The position numbers and the translations under genes are program-made. This document shows positions 7,811 through 27,445 of a stretch of 36,736 nt of DNA, piece by piece. The first letter of the stretch is position 1, and each line of letters starts with the position of its first letter. The notes beneath the pieces are model-generated. The model was not told the DNA's origin. It searched no databases and saw only the letters and a list, made by a program, of their open reading frames with translations. The DNA is from Nostoc sp. DedSLP01 (GTDB taxonomy: Bacteria; Cyanobacteriota; Cyanobacteriia; Cyanobacteriales; Nostocaceae): assembly GCA_034530875.2 (NCBI GenBank), contig JAVRCJ020000028.1:1-36736 (forward strand). The letters run 5' to 3'.

Positions 7811-10195
<2,385 letters not shown>

Positions 10196-10265
10196 CTCAA
10201 TCTGAGTCGGTCGTCAGGTGAAACTTGATTTTTTTTCTAGTAACTAAAAAGTAGAGGATTGAATT

Positions 10266-11675
10266 GTGACTTATTCTAGCGATCGCAATATCGATGCAGA
10301 AAATCAGCAGCCCCACTTAACCTTAAGTACAGCAGCGGCGCGTAATTTGGCGACAACGGCCAAATCTGCACCGCAGACCCAGGAAATTACATCCCGGTGG
10401 TTATTAAAGTTGTTGCCTTTTGTACAAACTAAAGGTGGCACTTTTCGAGTCAACCGTCGCTTGAGTTATACCGTAGGTGATGGGCGAGTCAGTTTCACCA
10501 ATACTGGAGCAGCAGTACAGGTAATTCCTCAAGAACTAACTGAATTGCCCTTACTGCGCGGATTTAGCGAAGTTGATGTCTTGACAGGCTTAGCAAACCA
10601 GTTTCAGCAGCAAGAGTACGCCCCAGACGATGTAATCGTTGAGATTGGTCAGCCCGCCGATCGCATAATTCTAATTGCTCGTGGTAAGGTGAACAAAATT
10701 GGTGTTGGCAAGTATGGCGAAGAGATCGTCTACGATGTGCTAGCTGACGGCGACCATTTCGGCGATGAAACTGTGGCCCAGTCCGAGGACACCTGGCAGT
10801 ACACCCTCAAAGCAATTACCAGAACCATAGTTTTGTCATTGCCCCAACAAGCGTTTGAGAGGCTCGTCGGTCAGTCCGAGGCACTGCGAACTCATGTCGA
10901 ACAGTTCCGCACTCGTCTGAGTCAGCCACAGACTCCCGAAGGTGAAGCCGCCATTCAACTAGCAGCCAATCATCCCCAAGAGACTCCCTTAGCAGGAACT
11001 TTCGCTGATTACGAACTTGCACCCCGCGAATACGAATTGAGCATCGCTCAAACGGTGTTGCGAGTCAGTACTCGCGTTGCTGACCTGTACAACGAACCGT
11101 ACAACCAGACAGAAGAACAACTGCGACTAACTATCGAGTCATTACGGGAACGTCAGGAATACGAATTACTCAACAACCGCGAATTCGGATTGCTGCACAA
11201 CGCCGACTTGAAACAACGCATTTATAGCCGCACTGGGGCACCCACACCAGACGACCTCGACGAACTGCTGACCACAGTATGGAAAGAGCCGTCATTCTTC
11301 TTAGCTCACCCCCGCACCATTGCAGCCATAGGCCGCGAAGCCAACCGCCAAGGCGTTTATCCACAAAGTATAGATATCAACGGCAATCAAGTTACAGCTT
11401 GGCGCGGCGTACCTATCTTTCCTTCCAATAAGATTCCCATCACCAATAACCGCACCAGTTCTGTGCTTTTGCTGCGCACAGGTTTGGAAAAACAAGGCGT
11501 CATCGGCTTACATCAAACTGGTATCCCCGATGAGTACCAACCAAGTTTGTCTGTGCGCTTCATGGGTATCGATGAAAAGGCGATTATTTCTTACTTGGTT
11601 ACTGCCTACTACTCAGCAGCCGTCCTGATTCCTGACGCGCTCGGCATCCTTGAAGATGTGGAAATCGGGCGCTAA
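10266..11675 (+). CDS. cnb1: Family 2B encapsulin shell protein with cNMP-binding-type insertion (copy 1)
   Basis: 469 aa; [29 protein letters not shown]-arm, central cNMP-type domain (GDHFGD), [42 protein letters not shown] start with AGAGGA RBS. Confidence 0.92.
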
Positions 11676-11682
11676 GTGATTG

Positions 11683-11806
11683 AATTTTAGATTTTGGATT
11701 TTGGATTTTGGATTGAAAAATTCAAAATTCAAAATTTCAACACGTTTGTGATTTATACTCGCTCCCCGACGAGCAAGCTACGTGGAACAAATCTAAAATC
11801 CAAAAT
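11683..11806. repeat. Heptamer (GATTTTG/CAAAATC) tandem repeats in inverted arrangement with an internal small dispersed repeat
   Basis: (GATTTTG)n at about 11690-11714, AATCTAAAATCCAAAAT at about 11790-11806, and TACTCGC...AGCAAGCTA at 11756-11780, related to 24428-24455. Confidence 0.75.
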
Positions 11807-11827
11807 TGTTAGCTAGAGGATGAGGTA

Positions 11828-13237
11828 ATGACGGATTTTATTGAATCGAACAGTTCAGTTGAGGGCGGACAACCTCAACTGAGTTTGAGTAAAGATGCAG
11901 CGCGCAATTTGTCCAAAACAACTAAATCTGCACCGCAGACGCAGGAAATTACACCGCGGTGGTTGTTGAAGATGTTGCCGTGGGTGCAGACTAAGGCTGG
12001 CACTTATCGGTTGAATCGGCGGTTGACCTATACTGTGGGTGATGGGCGAATTAGTTTCACTAATACCGGAGCCGACGTCCAGGTAATTCCGGAGAAACTG
12101 ACTGAGTTACCATTGCTGCGAGGGTTTAACGATGTTGGTCTACTGAGCGCACTGGCAGGTAGGTTTGTTCAGCGGGAGTTTGCGCCTGGTGAGATTATAG
12201 TCCAGGCAGGTCAACTAGCTAATGAATTTGTGGCGATCGCGCATGGCAAGGTTAACAAGATTGGTGTTGGCAAGTATGACGAGCAGCCTTTGTTGGATGT
12301 GCTAGCTGACGGCGATTATTTTGGCGAACAGATATTAGTTGAGCCAGAAACCAGCAATTGGAAGTTTACAGTCACAGCTGTTACCCAATGCACAATATTG
12401 GCACTACCACAACAGGCATTTCGAGAACTGCTCAATCAGTCCAGTGCTTTGCAGGCTCAAGTTGAGCAGTTTCGGACTCGCGCCCAACAACCACAAAACA
12501 AATACGGAGAAGCTTTAATAGCCTTATCCTGCGCTCATCCTACAGAGACGACGTTACCAACAACATTTGTTGATTACGAACTCTCACCCCGCGAATATCA
12601 ATTGAGCATTGCTCAGACTGTGTTACGGGTGAGTACTAGAGTTGCGGATCTGTACAACGAACCGTATAACCAAACAGAAGAACAACTGCGACTGACTATC
12701 GAGGCATTGCGGGAACGTCAAGAATACGAGTTGATCAACAACCGCGAATTTGGGTTGCTGCACAATGCGGATTTCAAACAGCGCATTTATAGCCGTAGCG
12801 GCCCCCCTACTCCCGATGACCTTGACGAACTGGTTACCCGCCGGCGGAAATCGAAGTTCTTCTTGGCTCACCCGCGTACTATTGCAGCTTTCGGTCGAGA
12901 GTGCAACCGTCGGGGCATTTATCCACCAACCATTGATGTTGATGGCACTAAGATAATTACGTGGCGCAATGTACCGATTTTTCCCTCTAACAAAATCCCG
13001 ATTACTAAGAATCAGACTAGTTCTATCTTGATACTCCGCACTGGTGAAGATGACCAAGGTGTGATTGGTTTACATCAAACTGGTATCCCTGATGAATACC
13101 AACCGGGTCTGTCTGTCCGATTCATGGGTATCAACGAAAAGGCTATCATCTCCTACCTTGTGACAGCTTATTACTCTGCTGCGGTTCTTGTCCCTGATGC
13201 ACTCGGCATTCTCGAGGATGTTGAGATTGGGCGCTGA
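11828..13237 (+). CDS. cnb2: Family 2B encapsulin shell protein with cNMP-binding-type insertion (copy 2)
   Basis: 469-aa paralog of 10266-11675 with the same motifs and the same C-terminus [21 protein letters not shown]. Confidence 0.92.
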
Positions 13238-13271: not shown

Positions 13272-13495
13272 GGGGTAGGGGGTAGGGTGTAGGGTGTGGG
13301 GTGTAGGAAAAAAATCAAGAAAAGTAAATATGAGTGCGAACATAAGTAATACCGACGTTGCTCAGTGAAAATATGAACTTGTTTCACGCAGAGAGTAAGA
13401 GTTTGAGAGATAGAATTTTTGACTTTCATACCTTAAAACAAGGGGTTTCTTTCTAAGGAGGCGCTTATTTCCCTACACCCCACACCCTACACCCT
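13272..13495. repeat. Inverted GGGTGTA-type heptamer repeat pair enclosing a deleted MITE copy
   Basis: Perfect 24-bp inverted repeat 13284-13307 / 13472-13495; 13354-13433 is the reverse complement of the 1855-2011 MITE lacking its middle and one TIR. Confidence 0.8.
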
Positions 13496-13555
13496 TTTTC
13501 ATGCATGGTTGTGAAAATTGTTTGATTGAGACTGCTTTATATACGAGAGTTTTAT

Positions 13556-14476
13556 ATGCCAAAATCAATGTTGCAAACTACTACAGACACTAGCTTTAAT
13601 TTAAAAGCTTATTTATCAGAACGGCAGGCTTTAGTTGAAGCAGAACTCGATCGCTCAATTACTGTGGCTTATCCAGAAATTCTCTACGAGTCTATGCGGT
13701 ATTCTCTATTAGCTGGAGGAAAACGCTTACGCCCAATTCTGTGTTTAGCAAGTTGCGAACTCTGTGGTGGCACATTAGAGATGGCAATGCCTACTGCCTG
13801 CGCTTTAGAAATGTGTCATACCTTTTCTCTGATGCATGATGATTTGCCTGCTATGGATAACGATGATTATCGGCGAGGTAGGCTAACTAACCATAAAGTT
13901 TATGGTGAAAATATTGCAATTTTAGCTGGCGATGCACTTTTAGCTTACGCCTTTGAGTTTTTAATCGTGCAAACAAAACAAGTTCCGGCAGAGCACCTGT
14001 TGCAAGTCGTTGTTAAGTTAAGCCACACTATGGCAGCAACAGGTTTAGTCGGCGGTCAAGTTGCTGATTTGCAATCTGAGGGTTTACAGAATATCGATCT
14101 CAAAACCCTCGACTTTATTCATACTCATAAAACTGGAGCTTTGTTAGAAACCTCAGTTCTCTCAGGGGCGATGTTAACAGGAGCGAGTGATTCTGTTTTA
14201 CAAAGACTTTCTGTTTATGCTCGTCACATTGGTCTAGCTTTTCAAATTGTAGATGATGTGCTTGATATTACTGGAACTCAAGAAGAACTAGGTAAAACTC
14301 CGGGTAAAGACCAAAAAGCACAGAAAGTAACTTACCCCAGTTTATGGGGTATTGAAGAATCAAAACGCAAAAGTCAAGAATTAGTTGACCTAGCCAAAGG
14401 TGAAGTTGCTGGTTTTGGAGATAAGGCACAACCTCTAATGGCGATCGCAGATTATATCGTTGCAAGAACGCATTAA
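13556..14476 (+). CDS. Short-chain trans-prenyltransferase, CrtE paralog, probable farnesyl diphosphate synthase
   Basis: [50 protein letters not shown]; Phe at -5 from the first Asp-rich motif. ATG 13556 preferred over TTG 13526. Confidence 0.9.
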
Positions 14477-14545
14477 TCCTTGATTTGCCATCTATGAAGT
14501 TTGAGAATCGAATGGCACTAAGAAAAGATGAAATCTCGTCAGGGC

Positions 14546-14655
14546 AGGGTGTAGGGGGTAGGGTGTAGGGTGTAGTGTTTAAGACAATTTAATTTGGATT
14601 GCGCCAAAAAGTTCAACATCTTCTTAATTCCCCACACCCTACACCCCACACCCTA
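14546..14655. repeat. Inverted GGGTGTA/TACACCC heptamer repeat pair between convergent genes
   Basis: G-rich arm 14546-14575, C-rich arm 14630-14655. Confidence 0.75.
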
Positions 14656-14711: not shown

Positions 14712-16979
14712 CTATCCTTTTACCTCATCCTTTGGAGGATTCGGCGGACACCAAAACAGGTTTTTACTAGAAACGCCAAGGGATTCTAAAATTTCTCGCA
14801 TTACCTGGGTGCAGTACATCCAGTGTCCTAAATCGTCATACATGCGATCGGGATTAAACTCTACGTTGTAATGCAGTACATTGGGAAGACCTAAAAATTC
14901 ATCGCTAGATTGGGGAGAAAGCAGCAGCAGGTGAAATGGCTTTTCCTGGCATTGTTTTTTTAGCTTATCGACCAAATCCATTGCACCATTACGATCTGCT
15001 ATACCTGTACGGACAAAAAGTGCTTTGTCGCAATTTTGCAATGTGTACCAAAACCTTTGGGAGCGTGCGCTGTAGCGAACCCGCATCCGTTCGTAGACGG
15101 GAGACATATCGTTTACAGGATCGTCTGTGTCTTCGACTTCATGGGCAAAGGATAAACCCGTCCATTTACTATGGTAGATTCTGCACGCATCGGCATTGTA
15201 ATGCAGAAAAGCAGGGTTCCACATATCATAAAAACGATTTTCGATGATATCTGCGATGTCTGCAATCTTGGTAGTGCGCGTTAAATCAAAGGGGAATGCC
15301 GGGCCGTCGTACTCCATTTTATACAGCATCATCCTGACGGCACAGCGATCGCCCAGTGGCAAAATCGCAATTCGGCTGATATCCGATAATTTACATTTAT
15401 ATTCAAACAGTATCGCTGACTTGGGTAGTGCTTTCACTCTACTTTCCAGCCCCTTGTTGCCAATCATCATGGTACGGAAGGGGATATCGGGATGCAGTGA
15501 ATCTTCATAAACACCCGATGGTAAGGCTTTGAGTGCTTGGCGGATCTCTGGCCACATGGGATGAATGTTGTATTCGTTGTCTGATTCGTTAATTACCCAG
15601 AGGTGGCGTTCGTCGGCTTGTAAAATGCCCAGATGTCCGTCATAAAATAAAAGGTTTGAGTTGCTGGGCGAAAAAAGATTGAAGGCGGCAGTGTATTCTA
15701 AATCTGCACCAGGGGGAATGTCCATTGTGGTGGCGATCGCCCCATTATCTTGGACAGTAAAGAAGGGGAGTATCCCTGGCTGTGCAGACTTGGCAATGTA
15801 GATACCAGGGGTCAATCCTGCCGTGTTTTGTAGTGCTGTTTGGAGTTCTTGCCAATAGGGAGCAATGGTGTAGGTATATTTCGATGGATTGACGATGCGC
15901 AAACGCTTTTCATCGATACAGGCAGAGACATAAAAACCTGTATAGTCAAGATAGACGGTAACTTGATTTGGCTGCTGGAAGCGTTGTTTTTCTTTTGTCA
16001 ATTCGGTTTTGGCGATCGCAAATAAATTCAAATCGATGCACTCATACATTAGACGATGCCCGACGGTGTTGGGATGAGCCGGATCGAAAGATATGCCATC
16101 TTTCCAGCGTCCCTGACCGTTATCTAATGCTGCCAACCAATCAAATATAGTCACGCCCCAATTTAGCATCCGGTTATGCGTGTCTTTCAACAGCCAGTAA
16201 TGTTCCGGCGAATAATCATTGTGAGGATAGACTCCGCCGAGAATTGGACGTGCGCCCAGATCCCGCGTCATTTTCACCAGCTGTTGTAAACCACTTTCAA
16301 ATCGCCGTTGAACTGCGCGGCGTTCGTGGGGGAGACAGTAGGCTAACCCTTCGTTACCTAGAGACAGGGCAATAATTACAATATCTGGTTTTTCTGGGAT
16401 GACGACTGAGGCAAATCGATTGATTGTTCTGGTGACATTCGCCCCAGCTTCAGACACATTTACAACTTGATGTCCGTATTTTTCCTGCAAAGCTTGTCCT
16501 AATAGCCAAGCCCAACCTCTGAAGAGCCAAGCTTTATGGCCGAAAGCAACGGAACTGCCAAGAACTACGATTTTTAGTTTCTCGGAATCTTCGTTTGCAG
16601 GTATTTTGGCAGGTTCTTGAGCAAAATATCCAAAGGGATAAGGCTGCAAATAACCGAATGCGCCATCATCCACAATAATTGTTTTCGAGCGATTTTCAGG
16701 GTCAATTGGTATCCATCGGTTAAAACCGAAAGCTTCCCAGCGCGCGCTGCCGTCAGAGTCTATACGCACATACTTATATTCAATTTTCTCGCCATTACTA
16801 GACTCTAAAAATGGCGCAAAGTTGATTTCTTTATCTGTCCACCATAAAGGATAGCGATCGGGACTTGTACGCAGAGGAACATATTTTTTGATATCCCACA
16901 GTCCCAACTCGGTAGTAGAACCTACAATACCTATGGATTCACCAGTTTGGGTATGTGCGCCGATCTGGAATCGATACAT
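14712..16979 (-). CDS. CBM20 - SGNH/GDSL hydrolase - DUF1796 (putative papain-like peptidase) fusion protein
   Basis: N-terminal GESIGIVGSTTELGLWD..YPLWW..EYKYV (CBM20); LGSSVAFG, LGNE, DPAHPN (SGNH blocks); C-terminal LGDRC..PFD..FVR (DUF1796-like). Confidence 0.8.
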   Translation of the reverse strand: MYRFQIGAHTQTGESIGIVGSTTELGLWDIKKYVPLRTSPDRYPLWWTDKEINFAPFLESSNGEKIEYKYVRIDSDGSARWEAFGFNRWIPIDPENRSKTIIVDDGAFGYLQPYPFGYFAQEPAKIPANEDSEKLKIVVLGSSVAFGHKAWLFRGWAWLLGQALQEKYGHQVVNVSEAGANVTRTINRFASVVIPEKPDIVIIALSLGNEGLAYCLPHERRAVQRRFESGLQQLVKMTRDLGARPILGGVYPHNDYSPEHYWLLKDTHNRMLNWGVTIFDWLAALDNGQGRWKDGISFDPAHPNTVGHRLMYECIDLNLFAIAKTELTKEKQRFQQPNQVTVYLDYTGFYVSACIDEKRLRIVNPSKYTYTIAPYWQELQTALQNTAGLTPGIYIAKSAQPGILPFFTVQDNGAIATTMDIPPGADLEYTAAFNLFSPSNSNLLFYDGHLGILQADERHLWVINESDNEYNIHPMWPEIRQALKALPSGVYEDSLHPDIPFRTMMIGNKGLESRVKALPKSAILFEYKCKLSDISRIAILPLGDRCAVRMMLYKMEYDGPAFPFDLTRTTKIADIADIIENRFYDMWNPAFLHYNADACRIYHSKWTGLSFAHEVEDTDDPVNDMSPVYERMRVRYSARSQRFWYTLQNCDKALFVRTGIADRNGAMDLVDKLKKQCQEKPFHLLLLSPQSSDEFLGLPNVLHYNVEFNPDRMYDDLGHWMYCTQVMREILESLGVSSKNLFWCPPNPPKDEVKG

Positions 16980-17271: not shown

Positions 17272-17838
17272 TTATGGTACTAACCGCCATTTCTGATCTG
17301 TGGGGAAACCATTGATGCTAAGTCCAGTTAGTTCGCAATCCCACAATTGCAATGATGAACCGTTAAGTGTGGCAGGATCTCCAGCGACATCAAGGCATTT
17401 ATTGGATAATAAATTTGTGATATATCCCCCAGCAATCAATCCCCATCTTTGATCTGTGCGGATACCATTGATTGTCAATGCAGCTAGTTCGCAATCCCAC
17501 AGTTGCAATGATGAACCGTTAGCTGTGGCAGGATCTCCAACTACATCAAGGCATTTGTTAGATAATACATTTTTGAGAAATCCTCCAGCAGTGAATTCCC
17601 ACTTCTGATCTGTGGGCGCACCGTCACCGCTAAATCCAGACTCTTCACAATCCCACAGTTGCACTCGCGAAGCGTTATTTATGCCAGGACTTCCAGATAC
17701 ATCAAGGCATCTGTTGGATAATTCGTTTTTTATAAAAAATCCGCCGATCGCTATTTGTGCTTTTACAGAAGTCTGCCAAATACCTTCAATAATAAGCAAA
17801 CCAAGCGAAAATCCCAGGATATGCCATTTAATTTTCAT
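17272..17838 (-). CDS. Secreted ricin-B-type (beta-trefoil) lectin domain protein
   Basis: Signal peptide ending VKA-Q; three repeats of N..SN(K/R)CLDV.G.P...QLWDCE...DQ(K/R)W. Confidence 0.9.
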   Translation of the reverse strand: MKIKWHILGFSLGLLIIEGIWQTSVKAQIAIGGFFIKNELSNRCLDVSGSPGINNASRVQLWDCEESGFSGDGAPTDQKWEFTAGGFLKNVLSNKCLDVVGDPATANGSSLQLWDCELAALTINGIRTDQRWGLIAGGYITNLLSNKCLDVAGDPATLNGSSLQLWDCELTGLSINGFPTDQKWRLVP

Positions 17839-24793: not shown

Positions 24794-25255
24794 TTAGCTT
24801 AGATAAGCAGACCTAGCTAACCAATAAACGGTTATACCCAAAGCTGACCCGGCTATTACTTGAACTGGTGTATGTCCAAGTAATTCCTTAAGACGGTCTT
24901 GGCTAAAGTCTGGTTTTTCATCAAATAATTCATCAATCATTTGATTGAGGATGCGAGCTTGTTTGCCAGCTGCTTGGCGAACTCCAGCTGCATCGTACAT
25001 GACGATGATGGCAAAAACCATTGCTACCGCAAAATCAGGAGATGCCCAACCAAGTTTTTCCCCGACACCAGCAGCTAGAGCGGTAACTAAAGCTGAATGG
25101 GCACTGGGCATACCTCCAGTTGTTACTAAAACACGCACATTTAGCTTGCGATTTTTGACTACCTCGATTACAAGCTTTAATGCTTGAGCAATTAAACAAG
25201 CTACCAGAGCAACTAGCAGCACCCGGTTGTCTAAAATGTTGCCTATGTCCTGCAT
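24794..25255 (-). CDS. Divergent PAP2 family protein (DUF212)
   Basis: GGMPSAHSA, YDAAGVR, LKELLGHTP; typical position downstream of crtE. Confidence 0.93.
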   Translation of the reverse strand: MQDIGNILDNRVLLVALVACLIAQALKLVIEVVKNRKLNVRVLVTTGGMPSAHSALVTALAAGVGEKLGWASPDFAVAMVFAIIVMYDAAGVRQAAGKQARILNQMIDELFDEKPDFSQDRLKELLGHTPVQVIAGSALGITVYWLARSAYLS

Positions 25256-25401: not shown

Positions 25402-26331
25402 CTAATTATTGCGACTGACAATAAAATGAGCGATCGCTTGGAGTGGTTTGGCTTTCTCTCCAAATGGTTCTAATTCCGCGCAAGCTGCGACAATTAGCTC
25501 TTGGGCTTTTGCACGAGATTCTTCAAGTCCCCAAAGGCTGGGAAATGTAACTTTCTTAGCTTTTTGGTCTTTGCCAGCAGTTTTACCTAATTGTTCCTGG
25601 GTAGCAGTGATATCCAAAATATCATCTACGATTTGAAACGCTAACCCAATATTTTGAGCATAACGCGTTAGTCTTTGCACATCTTCAGATGATGCCCCAG
25701 CGACGATCCCGCCACAAACTACGCAAGCTTCCAAAAGGGCAGCTGTTTTGTGTTCGTGGATGAAATTTAGCGTTTCTAAAGAAACATCTGATTTACCTTC
25801 ACACTGTAAATCTACAACTTGGCCGCCGACTAAACCAGCTGCTCCCAAAGCCCGACCCAGACGGACAACTACTTGCAATACTCGATCTCTGGTTACACTT
25901 TCAGGAGTTTCAAGGGCAACATGTTCAAAAGCCAGAGCTAACAAGCCATCACCAGCTAAAATCGCTACATCTTCGCCATAAACTTTATGATTTGTCAGCT
26001 TTCCGCGACGATAATCGTCATTATCCATTGACGGCAGGTCGTCATGAATCAAGGACATTGTGTGGATCATCTCCACTGCACAAGCCGTCGGCATAGCCAT
26101 TTCGATGGTGCCACCGATCATCTCACAAGTAGCAAGGCAGAGAATGGGGCGTACACGCTTACCTCCAGCTAATAACGAGTAGCGCATCGACTCATAAATT
26201 GTTTCTGGATAAACGACGGTAATAGCCCGATCCAAAGCAGTATCGCAAAGCTTTTGCCGTTCTTTGAGATAGGCTGCTAGGTTGAATTCAGTTTCCTCTG
26301 GTTTCTTTTGAACGTTATCAGTTGCTACCAT
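25402..26331 (-). CDS. crtE: Geranylgeranyl diphosphate synthase
   Basis: [30 protein letters not shown]; conserved folD-crtE-DUF212 order. Confidence 0.95.
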
Positions 26332-26566: not shown

Positions 26567-27445
26567 TCACTTTTTTACTGTCCTGGAATAGCTAGCAAAT
26601 GTATTTTGCAACAATAGAGCAACAGTCATCGGCCCAACACCACCGGGAACTGGGGTGATAAAACCCGCTACGGCAGCAGTTGATTCCAAATGAACATCGC
26701 CAACTAGCCGATTGTTGCCACTGGGATCGGTGACGCGATTCATTCCCACATCTACCACAACAGCGCCCGGTTTTACCATGTCAGCAGAAATCAGTCCGGG
26801 ACGACCTGCTGCTGCAATTAGAATATCAGCATTCTGAGCGATCGCTTTGAGATCGTGCGATCGCGAATGAGCAATGGTGACTGTTGCATCAGCTTCTAGC
26901 AGCATCAACGCCATTGGCTTACCTACTAAAATACTGCGTCCCACCACTACAGCCTGTTTTCCCTGCAACGGAATTTTATATTCTGCTAAAAGCCGCATCA
27001 CGCCAGCAGGGGTACAGCTACGCAAACCAGTTTCTCCCCGTACTAGTCGCCCCAAGTTCACTGGGTGCAGTCCATCAGCATCTTTATCGGGATCGATTTG
27101 ATGTAGCAAACCAACAGCATCCAAGTGGTTAGGCAACGGTAGCTGCACGAGAATGCCATCTACCCGTTCGTCGTGGTTGAGTGTATGAATCACCTCTTCC
27201 AATTCCCCTTGGGTAGTTTCAGCAGGAAAATGTTTGCCAAAAGAGGCTATACCAACTTTCGCGCAGGCTTTTTCTTTATTGCGTACATAAGCAGCTGATG
27301 CCGGGTTATCCCCAACCATCAGCACTGCTAAACCAGGCGGCCGTCCAACTTTTGGTTGTAATTCACTAATGGCAACAGAAAGTTCTTGCTGAATTTTTGC
27401 AGCTAAAGCTTTCCCATCAAGGAGTTTGGCAGTTTGTGTTTTCAT
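26567..27445 (-). CDS. folD: Bifunctional methylenetetrahydrofolate dehydrogenase/cyclohydrolase
   Basis: [45 protein letters not shown]. Confidence 0.97.

Follow-up and report, generated by a model that had tools for sequence, protein, structure and literature searches.

A predicted farnesyl diphosphate synthase of an accessory CrtE lineage beside the encapsulin-type geosmin cluster of a Nostoc

Results

Gene organization of the geosmin locus

The window analysed here is a 36,736-nt stretch of a Nostoc sp. DedSLP01 contig (JAVRCJ020000028.1). On its + strand it carries, in this order, geoA, two family 2B encapsulin genes and a gene for a CrtE-family prenyl diphosphate synthase that we call Phe-type after the residue at its chain-length site. 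The housekeeping crtE lies 11 kb away on the opposite strand. The features are as follows.

7838..10195, + strand: geoA, two-domain geosmin synthase, 785 aa, consumer of FPP and predicted encapsulin cargo (NF041168, 1222 bits, cut-off 1200; two PF19086 domains)
8891..8914, + strand: GeoA cargo-loading peptide 1, residue 352, inter-domain linker (motif search)
10133..10156, + strand: GeoA cargo-loading peptide 2, residue 766, C-terminus (motif search)
10266..11675, + strand: family 2B encapsulin shell protein 1, a "cnb" gene (NF041163, 746 bits, cut-off 400)
11828..13237, + strand: family 2B encapsulin shell protein 2 (NF041163, 759 bits)
13275..13499, + strand: intergenic hairpin with heptamer repeat arms, then five T (tandem array 13275–13307; fold z = −4.9, 0/100 shuffles)
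13556..14476, + strand: Phe-type CrtE-family short-chain prenyl diphosphate synthase, 306 aa, predicted FPP synthase
13823..13825, + strand: Phe90 codon TTT, chain-length site, equivalent to Met87 of PCC 7002 CrtE
13838..13858, + strand: first Asp-rich motif, intact, with the type II two-residue insertion
14252..14266, + strand: second Asp-rich motif, intact
24794..25255, − strand: DUF212/PAP2 gene (PF02681) downstream of crtE, marks the housekeeping locus
25402..26331, − strand: housekeeping crtE, GGPP synthase, 309 aa, Met92 at 26056–26058, comparison gene
26567..27445, − strand: folD, upstream of crtE, marks the housekeeping locus

The substrate of GeoA is FPP (PMC13739066). The loading motif found twice in the window's GeoA is the one that loads GeoA into a family 2B shell in M. 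xanthus, where FPP enters the loaded shell freely (PMC13739066). The two genes that follow geoA were called regulators in older papers, under the name "cnb" (PMC7251104); both score as family 2B encapsulin shells, a point that the initial annotation had omitted from its description of the cluster.

The Phe-type gene is on the same strand as geoA and the shell genes, and its position is conserved. The 318-nt gap that separates it from the second shell gene (encB) holds the stable hairpin and T run, which may be a terminator, a processing site or an inert repeat. A promoter and terminator scan gave no excess over shuffled sequences and no + strand terminator call in this gap. Four RNA runs (share 0.12–0.13; one study, contigs only) are those of a relative and cover geoA and the shell genes, with only short conserved pieces of the Phe-type gene. 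GC3 is 0.28 for the Phe-type gene versus 0.46–0.50 for geoA and the encapsulin genes, which points to a separate history or expression regime.

Other features of the surroundings were recorded. Heptamer repeat arms of the same family occur on both sides of the Phe-type gene (13275–13499 and 14542–14655). The geosmin cluster itself (7838–13237) looks mosaic, geoA and the shells being closest to different groups of relatives: in one group geoA is ~90% identical and the shells only 66–70%, in another the shells are 86–89% identical and geoA ~77%. Further downstream on the − strand, 14712–16979 encodes a 755-aa protein in which CBM20, GDSL-lipase and DUF1796 domains are combined, and 17272–17838 a small secreted-looking beta-trefoil lectin built of 156-nt tandem repeats. 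Elsewhere in the same genome are two more single-domain class I terpene synthases (G000:C38:8014–8988 and G000:C67:2414–3379), one of which adjoins a P450; both are possible users of FPP.

The Phe-type protein has a CrtE scaffold with an aromatic chain-length residue

The reading frame at 13556–14476 is open throughout and contains the motif HTFSLMHDD. Asp95 is the first Asp of the Asp-rich motif, which places Phe90 at position −5. The housekeeping enzyme reads HTMSLIHDD. Both motifs and the position of the Phe codon had been reported in the initial annotation together with an end-to-end alignment of the two proteins, and all of this was reproduced: BLASTP gives 196 identical residues in 297 (66%), and the two segments quoted at the time are correct. 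The surroundings that accompany Met-type crtE across relatives, folD on one side and DUF212 on the other, are those of the gene at 25402–26331 and not of the Phe-type gene. The genome has three PF00348 genes in all; the third encodes a long-chain synthase, 34% identical.

The Phe-type protein shows the hallmarks of a PF00348 trans-isoprenyl diphosphate synthase, with two Asp-rich motifs, the IPP-binding Lys/Arg residues and an all-helical fold. It retains Ser91 and Val165, contains a CX3C motif, and belongs to a clade in which the catalytic Lys, Arg and Asp residues are conserved. In the predicted structure (pLDDT 90) only residues 1–11 are of low confidence or disordered, and the top structural match of this model is a cyanobacterial CrtE (TM 0.89).

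At the chain-length site, Phe is present in 27/27 distinct sequences of the Phe-type clade and Met in 59/59 housekeeping-type sequences examined, so the Phe is not a chance substitution. Its codon is TTT across the whole clade, two base changes from ATG. The protein consequently departs from the CrtE chain-length motif (M/A)SX2H-DD at position −5 and carries the type II FPP synthase motif (F/Y)X3H-DDX3(hydrophobic)D, whose signature is given as (F/Y)X3H-DD in Table 1 of PMC9796789. Ser at −4 and Val two residues before GQ are the same as in CrtE in all 27 sequences; the C10-type changes described in PMC7261888 are thus absent.

Profile searches assign the protein to CrtE. Against the NCBIfam CrtE equivalog NF045685 it scores 517 bits (cut-off 460; housekeeping CrtE, 550 bits), and against PRK10581 (IspA) 223 bits, cut-off 321. 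Public names of its relatives include "geranylgeranyl diphosphate synthase CrtE", "polyprenyl synthetase" and "farnesyl diphosphate synthase", the last being non-discriminating because CrtE itself also passes the FPPsyn model. It had been foreseen that automated pipelines would call the gene a second crtE; the scores and names agree, and point to a systematic mis-annotation of Phe-type genes as crtE.

The Phe-type gene groups with accessory CrtE copies

In a tree of 124 rows, for which identical proteins were merged and the long-chain enzyme was left out, the 27 distinct Phe-type proteins form one clade (SH-aLRT 99). This clade is nested in a 44-row accessory clade (98), most of whose genes have dxs, ispG, ispH, ispE or dxr as neighbours; the genome's own crtE falls apart from it among 23 Nostocales housekeeping sequences (98). 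A separate 44-row tree gives the same groupings (bootstrap 100, 99 and 100) and places the Phe-type protein within the cyanobacterial clade (100/98).

The initial annotation had proposed that the gene arose by duplication of crtE. AU tests, on topologies chosen after the trees had been seen, reject this origin in the sense of a copy of the genome's own crtE, both with the two genes of this genome as sisters (p-AU 3.1e-5) and with the Phe clade joined to the Nostocales housekeeping crtE (6.7e-5); a clade of Phe-type, accessory and Nostocales housekeeping sequences is weakly rejected (0.03). The distance of 11 kb between the two genes is no evidence of parentage. The comparison with both CrtE and IspA that had been suggested places the Phe-type protein inside cyanobacterial CrtE in the best trees, which exclude its joining with IspA; a tree in which the Phe clade groups with five IspA-like rows from outside the cyanobacteria, which are long branches, is not rejected (p = 0.12). 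Identities are 67–72% to accessory copies, 63–72% to Met-type cyanobacterial enzymes and 44–51% to the IspA-like outgroups, and the gap between accessory and IspA-like values favours a CrtE origin.

Judged by its sequence, then, the Phe-type gene is a member of an older accessory CrtE lineage of secondary-metabolite clusters, one that includes the hapalindole GPP synthase P2. P2-type proteins in the accessory clade include that of Fischerella sp. PCC 9431 (L097), where the trp-P2-ispH layout is that of a hapalindole-type cluster. Two other accessory copies (L035:9256–10317 in G021 and L074:8640–9665 in G224) have Ala as their chain-length residue, a substitution that led to C25 in PCC 7002 CrtE (PMC7261888). 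Each adjoins a Pyr4-like transmembrane terpene cyclase (PF25129) and duplicated MEP genes, making these candidate sesterterpenoid clusters.

Phe-type genes co-occur with geoA

The range of Phe-type genes described here is that of the genomes sampled: 24 of other families, 61 relatives, 351 of the family and 91 of family f26. In the 351-genome sample, where related genomes are non-independent, 37 genomes yielded 39 matches at E ≤ 1e-136, a threshold that could miss divergent copies; the motifs of these carry Phe in 21 cases, Met in 16 and Ala in two. geoA was matched in 92 of the 351 genomes (these include three matches of only ~50% identity and a few broken or partial genes). The Phe-type gene is present in 20 of these 92 versus 1 of the 259 genomes that lack geoA. 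Put the other way, in the survey that the initial annotation had suggested, geoA is found in 20/21 Phe-type genomes, and in 19/21 the Phe-type gene lies beside an encapsulin gene. In one genome (G102) the Phe-type gene is present without geoA, and a different class I terpene synthase is encoded; in another (G240) geoA is on a separate contig. At the same threshold 72 of the 92 geoA genomes (about 78%) have no Phe-type match, including the one with the closest cluster (L167), and the Phe-type gene is therefore not needed to keep geoA.

Among the 61 relatives, 28 have a full-length geoA and five, our genome included, the Phe-type gene, each time directly 3′ of the second shell gene. In the clade as a whole, 25/27 distinct sequences lie 53–440 nt 3′ of an encapsulin gene. 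Named records with the four-gene layout are Tolypothrix tenuis PCC 7101 (L087), Amazonocrinis (L088), Desmonostoc (L106) and several Nostoc. The 24 single genomes of other families have one CrtE-like match each. In f26, 88/91 genomes have one such match, one has two and two have none, and the Phe-type motif is absent from the 10 best matches and the extra copy.

That extra copy, L246:4906–5964 (G786), is an independent crtE-like ORF directly after geoA and two encapsulin genes; it has Lys at −5 and Asn for Asp in the first motif, groups as sister of a housekeeping crtE and is probably a decaying hitch-hiker. Also in f26, at L237 (G544) and in Microcoleus (L122, L132 and L137), the housekeeping folD-crtE-DUF212 genes are neighbours of the geosmin cluster. 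The six genes share a strand in G544, whose sole CrtE has unusual Phe/Ser changes right before the chain-length site. At L240 (G653) geoA is separated from its encapsulin gene by a reversed insert that resembles a 2-MIB set (shell, methyltransferase-like ORF, cyclase, shell). The double-encapsulin loci L214, L215 and L216 encode a two-domain terpene cyclase only about 45–50% identical to GeoA, possibly with a different product.

Selection on the Phe-type gene and its history in the cluster

Phe-type genes are under purifying selection, with a median dN/dS of 0.13 over 348 of 351 pairs (housekeeping, 0.10). The window's gene gives 0.10–0.14 against all 26 other clade members, and a pseudogene is rejected. 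In the 21 loci with all four genes complete, Phe-type genes diverge in step with geoA, encA and encB (correlation of distances, Mantel rho 0.71, 0.75 and 0.79). When mapped on a second-shell-protein tree of 71 rows, the Phe-type gene occurs in all three main branches and needs, as a raw count, at least 13 changes of state.

Of 60 geoA loci that were fetched, four have the Phe-type gene and one (L178) a 5′ remnant. The other 55 show no trace, several of them ending near a contig edge and one (L170) belonging to a genome with a Phe-type gene on another contig. The remnant (L178/L242) is at exactly the same site and encodes 58 aa, 78% identical to the window's Phe-type protein and 67% to CrtE. 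The closest cluster (L167), 96–98% identical, has no Phe-type gene. Early gain followed by many losses fits these patterns best, and re-acquisition by recombination may have contributed.

Discussion

By analogy with characterized CrtE variants, FPP is probably the main product of the Phe-type enzyme. In PCC 7002 CrtE the change M87Y turns a GGPP synthase into an FPP synthase, M87A leads mainly to C25 (GFPP), Ser88Phe gives FPP and GPP, and Val161Met gives FPP and GGPP (PMC7261888). We consider it likely that the gene encodes a dedicated, dispensable FPP synthase derived from the accessory CrtE family. The supply of FPP to GeoA, which the initial annotation had predicted alongside a duplication of crtE, is well supported as a prediction by the mutagenesis precedent at the same residue, by a Phe that never varies within the clade, by purifying selection and by the strong linkage with geoA. 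The direct observations behind it are the sequence, the intact motifs, the clade, selection, gene order and one remnant; the product, a location outside the shell, co-expression and an effect on geosmin output are what we infer.

The enzyme would act as an active trans-prenyl diphosphate synthase that joins DMAPP with two IPP and then lets FPP go. With Phe90 in place of the Met of CrtE, the chain pocket would be closed at its floor one isoprene unit sooner, stopping elongation at C15. The enzyme would be located in the cytosol, outside the shell, and provide GeoA with an optional supply of precursor; GeoA would be loaded in a two-component encapsulin shell and receive FPP through the shell pores. 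Historically, the gene probably has a single origin in the accessory CrtE lineage of Nostocales secondary-metabolite clusters, with early entry into the geoA-encapsulin-encapsulin cluster and repeated loss.

Position −5 is not the sole determinant of chain length. The hapalindole P2 enzymes (AmbP2/WelP2) are reported to be GPP synthases (PMC4236562) and have Met at this position, so other residues must contribute, and two CrtEs with an identical chain-length motif differ in product range (PMC9796789). Moreover, the published FPP-making mutant carries Tyr, whereas the Phe-type enzyme carries Phe. A shorter or mixed product (GPP, or GPP with FPP), as in the P2 relatives, is unlikely and keeps its small share mainly because P2 has Met at −5 and because four diagnostic positions (Leu43, Ala127, Leu177 and Pro249) are common to the Phe clade and five P2-type sequences; on such a shared background the added Phe could shorten the chain further. 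A clade of Phe-type and P2 sequences is also not rejected by the AU test (p-AU 0.31). However, the P2-specific Ala at 165 and Leu at 100 are missing from the Phe clade, and Met93, which the window's protein has in common with P2-type sequences, occurs in only 2/27 Phe-type sequences. The gene is linked to GeoA, a user of FPP (PMC13739066), and 2-MIB genes are absent from the locus. That the enzyme still makes GGPP, or a relaxed C10–C20 mix, and merely adds CrtE dose near a terpene cluster would agree with its score above the CrtE equivalog cut-off, with the Met-type accessory copies in many terpenoid clusters and with the geoA genes that adjoin a housekeeping crtE in another family (L237, L122). 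We regard this as very unlikely, given that the nearest enzyme to have been tested no longer reaches C20 once position −5 is aromatic (PMC7261888) and that the two-base change to Phe is fixed throughout the clade.

The least probable reading, to which we attach very little weight, is that the protein acts mainly by pairing with housekeeping CrtE in a heterodimer and so changing the product of the latter, or is itself a second encapsulin cargo. Plant small subunits alter the product of their partner enzyme in this way. The CX3C motif would fit such a role, heterodimers have been proposed as possible for cyanobacterial CrtE (PMC9796789), and the 2021 supplement of PMC8346489 tabulates the double-encapsulin operons of T. 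tenuis PCC 7101 and, among the Nostoc rows listed, Nostoc sp. NIES-2111 under the cargo type "Polyprenyl Transferase / Terpene Cyclase", uninterpreted. Against this, every catalytic motif is intact, the GeoA-type loading motif occurs in 0/27 Phe-type sequences, the short low-confidence stretch is unlike the 50–100-residue disordered N-terminus typical of cargo prenyltransferases, and NF041169 gives 254 bits versus a cut-off of 450. Encapsulation of the Phe-type protein is not supported, and a cytosolic FPP synthase is the reading we prefer.

The co-location is thus already in print as table rows, of which the T. tenuis entry would be the L087 protein, and the main text of PMC8346489 treats such enzymes as diverse putative cargo. 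In the available text of PMC13739066 and PMC8346489 the cyanobacterial gene is given neither a chain length nor an origin, and the passages of PMC12271159 and PMC13625510 have nothing on it. Our literature search, with most subscription papers outside its reach, found no paper that assigns a product or an origin to the Phe-type gene. The premise that cyanobacteria have no separate FPP synthase needs qualifying, as an FPP synthase of T. elongatus (Ohto 1999) is cited in PMC7261888. The Discussion of PMC9796789 poses C15 precursor supply in single-CrtE cyanobacteria as a question. For some geosmin producers the Phe clade would be a natural answer, and one that can be tested. Short-chain precursor pools limit sesquiterpene engineering (PMC7261888), and the gene would be a native part for such work. 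Near-identical geosmin clusters with and without it (the window versus L167) make its effect on geosmin yield, which bears on drinking-water odour, directly testable. The chemistry is a known one-residue switch in a known enzyme class, which limits the surprise.

More tentatively, a mobile Nostocales accessory CrtE family might have been retuned repeatedly: to C10 in P2 (assayed), C15 in the Phe clade with geosmin, C20 in Met copies of dxs-ispG-ispH clusters and C25 in Ala copies beside Pyr4-like cyclases. The Phe-type gene would then be a native cyanobacterial FPP synthase that raises geosmin output and marks high producers. We hold this joint reading to be possible, though doubtful as a whole.

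Among known systems, cyanobacterial CrtE is the best match in both sequence and structure (PCC 7002, 6SXL/6SXN; PCC 6803, 7MXZ/7MY0/7MY1; PCC 7942, 7MY6/7MY7). The fold, the dimer-type helices, the type II insertion in the first Asp-rich motif and CX3C are common to both, whereas the Phe-type protein differs in Phe for Met at −5, its accessory clade, its site in a geosmin cluster and a predicted C15 instead of C20 product. It resembles the engineered M87Y enzyme of PCC 7002 in having an aromatic residue at the same site of a CrtE scaffold, the mutant making FPP (PMC7261888), but it represents a natural, selected clade with about a third of the other residues changed. With bacterial type II IspA it has in common the aromatic −5 residue, the (F/Y)X3H-DD motif and, as predicted, the reaction; its identity to IspA-like outgroups is low, and since it is nested in cyanobacterial CrtE in the best trees, the aromatic residue appears to have been regained. 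AmbP2, WelP2 and HpiP2 (PMC4236562) belong to the same Nostocales accessory CrtE family and are likewise dedicated precursor enzymes inside a terpenoid cluster, but have Met at −5, a C10 product and dxs/dxr/ispG/ispH as neighbours. The family 2B prenyltransferase operons of PMC8346489 are actinobacterial in 888/900 cases and encode long disordered N-termini, unlike the Phe-type protein. The cluster itself follows the M. xanthus GeoA system with its two-component family 2B encapsulin (PMC13739066), with the same gene order of geoA and two encapsulin genes and two loading peptides in GeoA.
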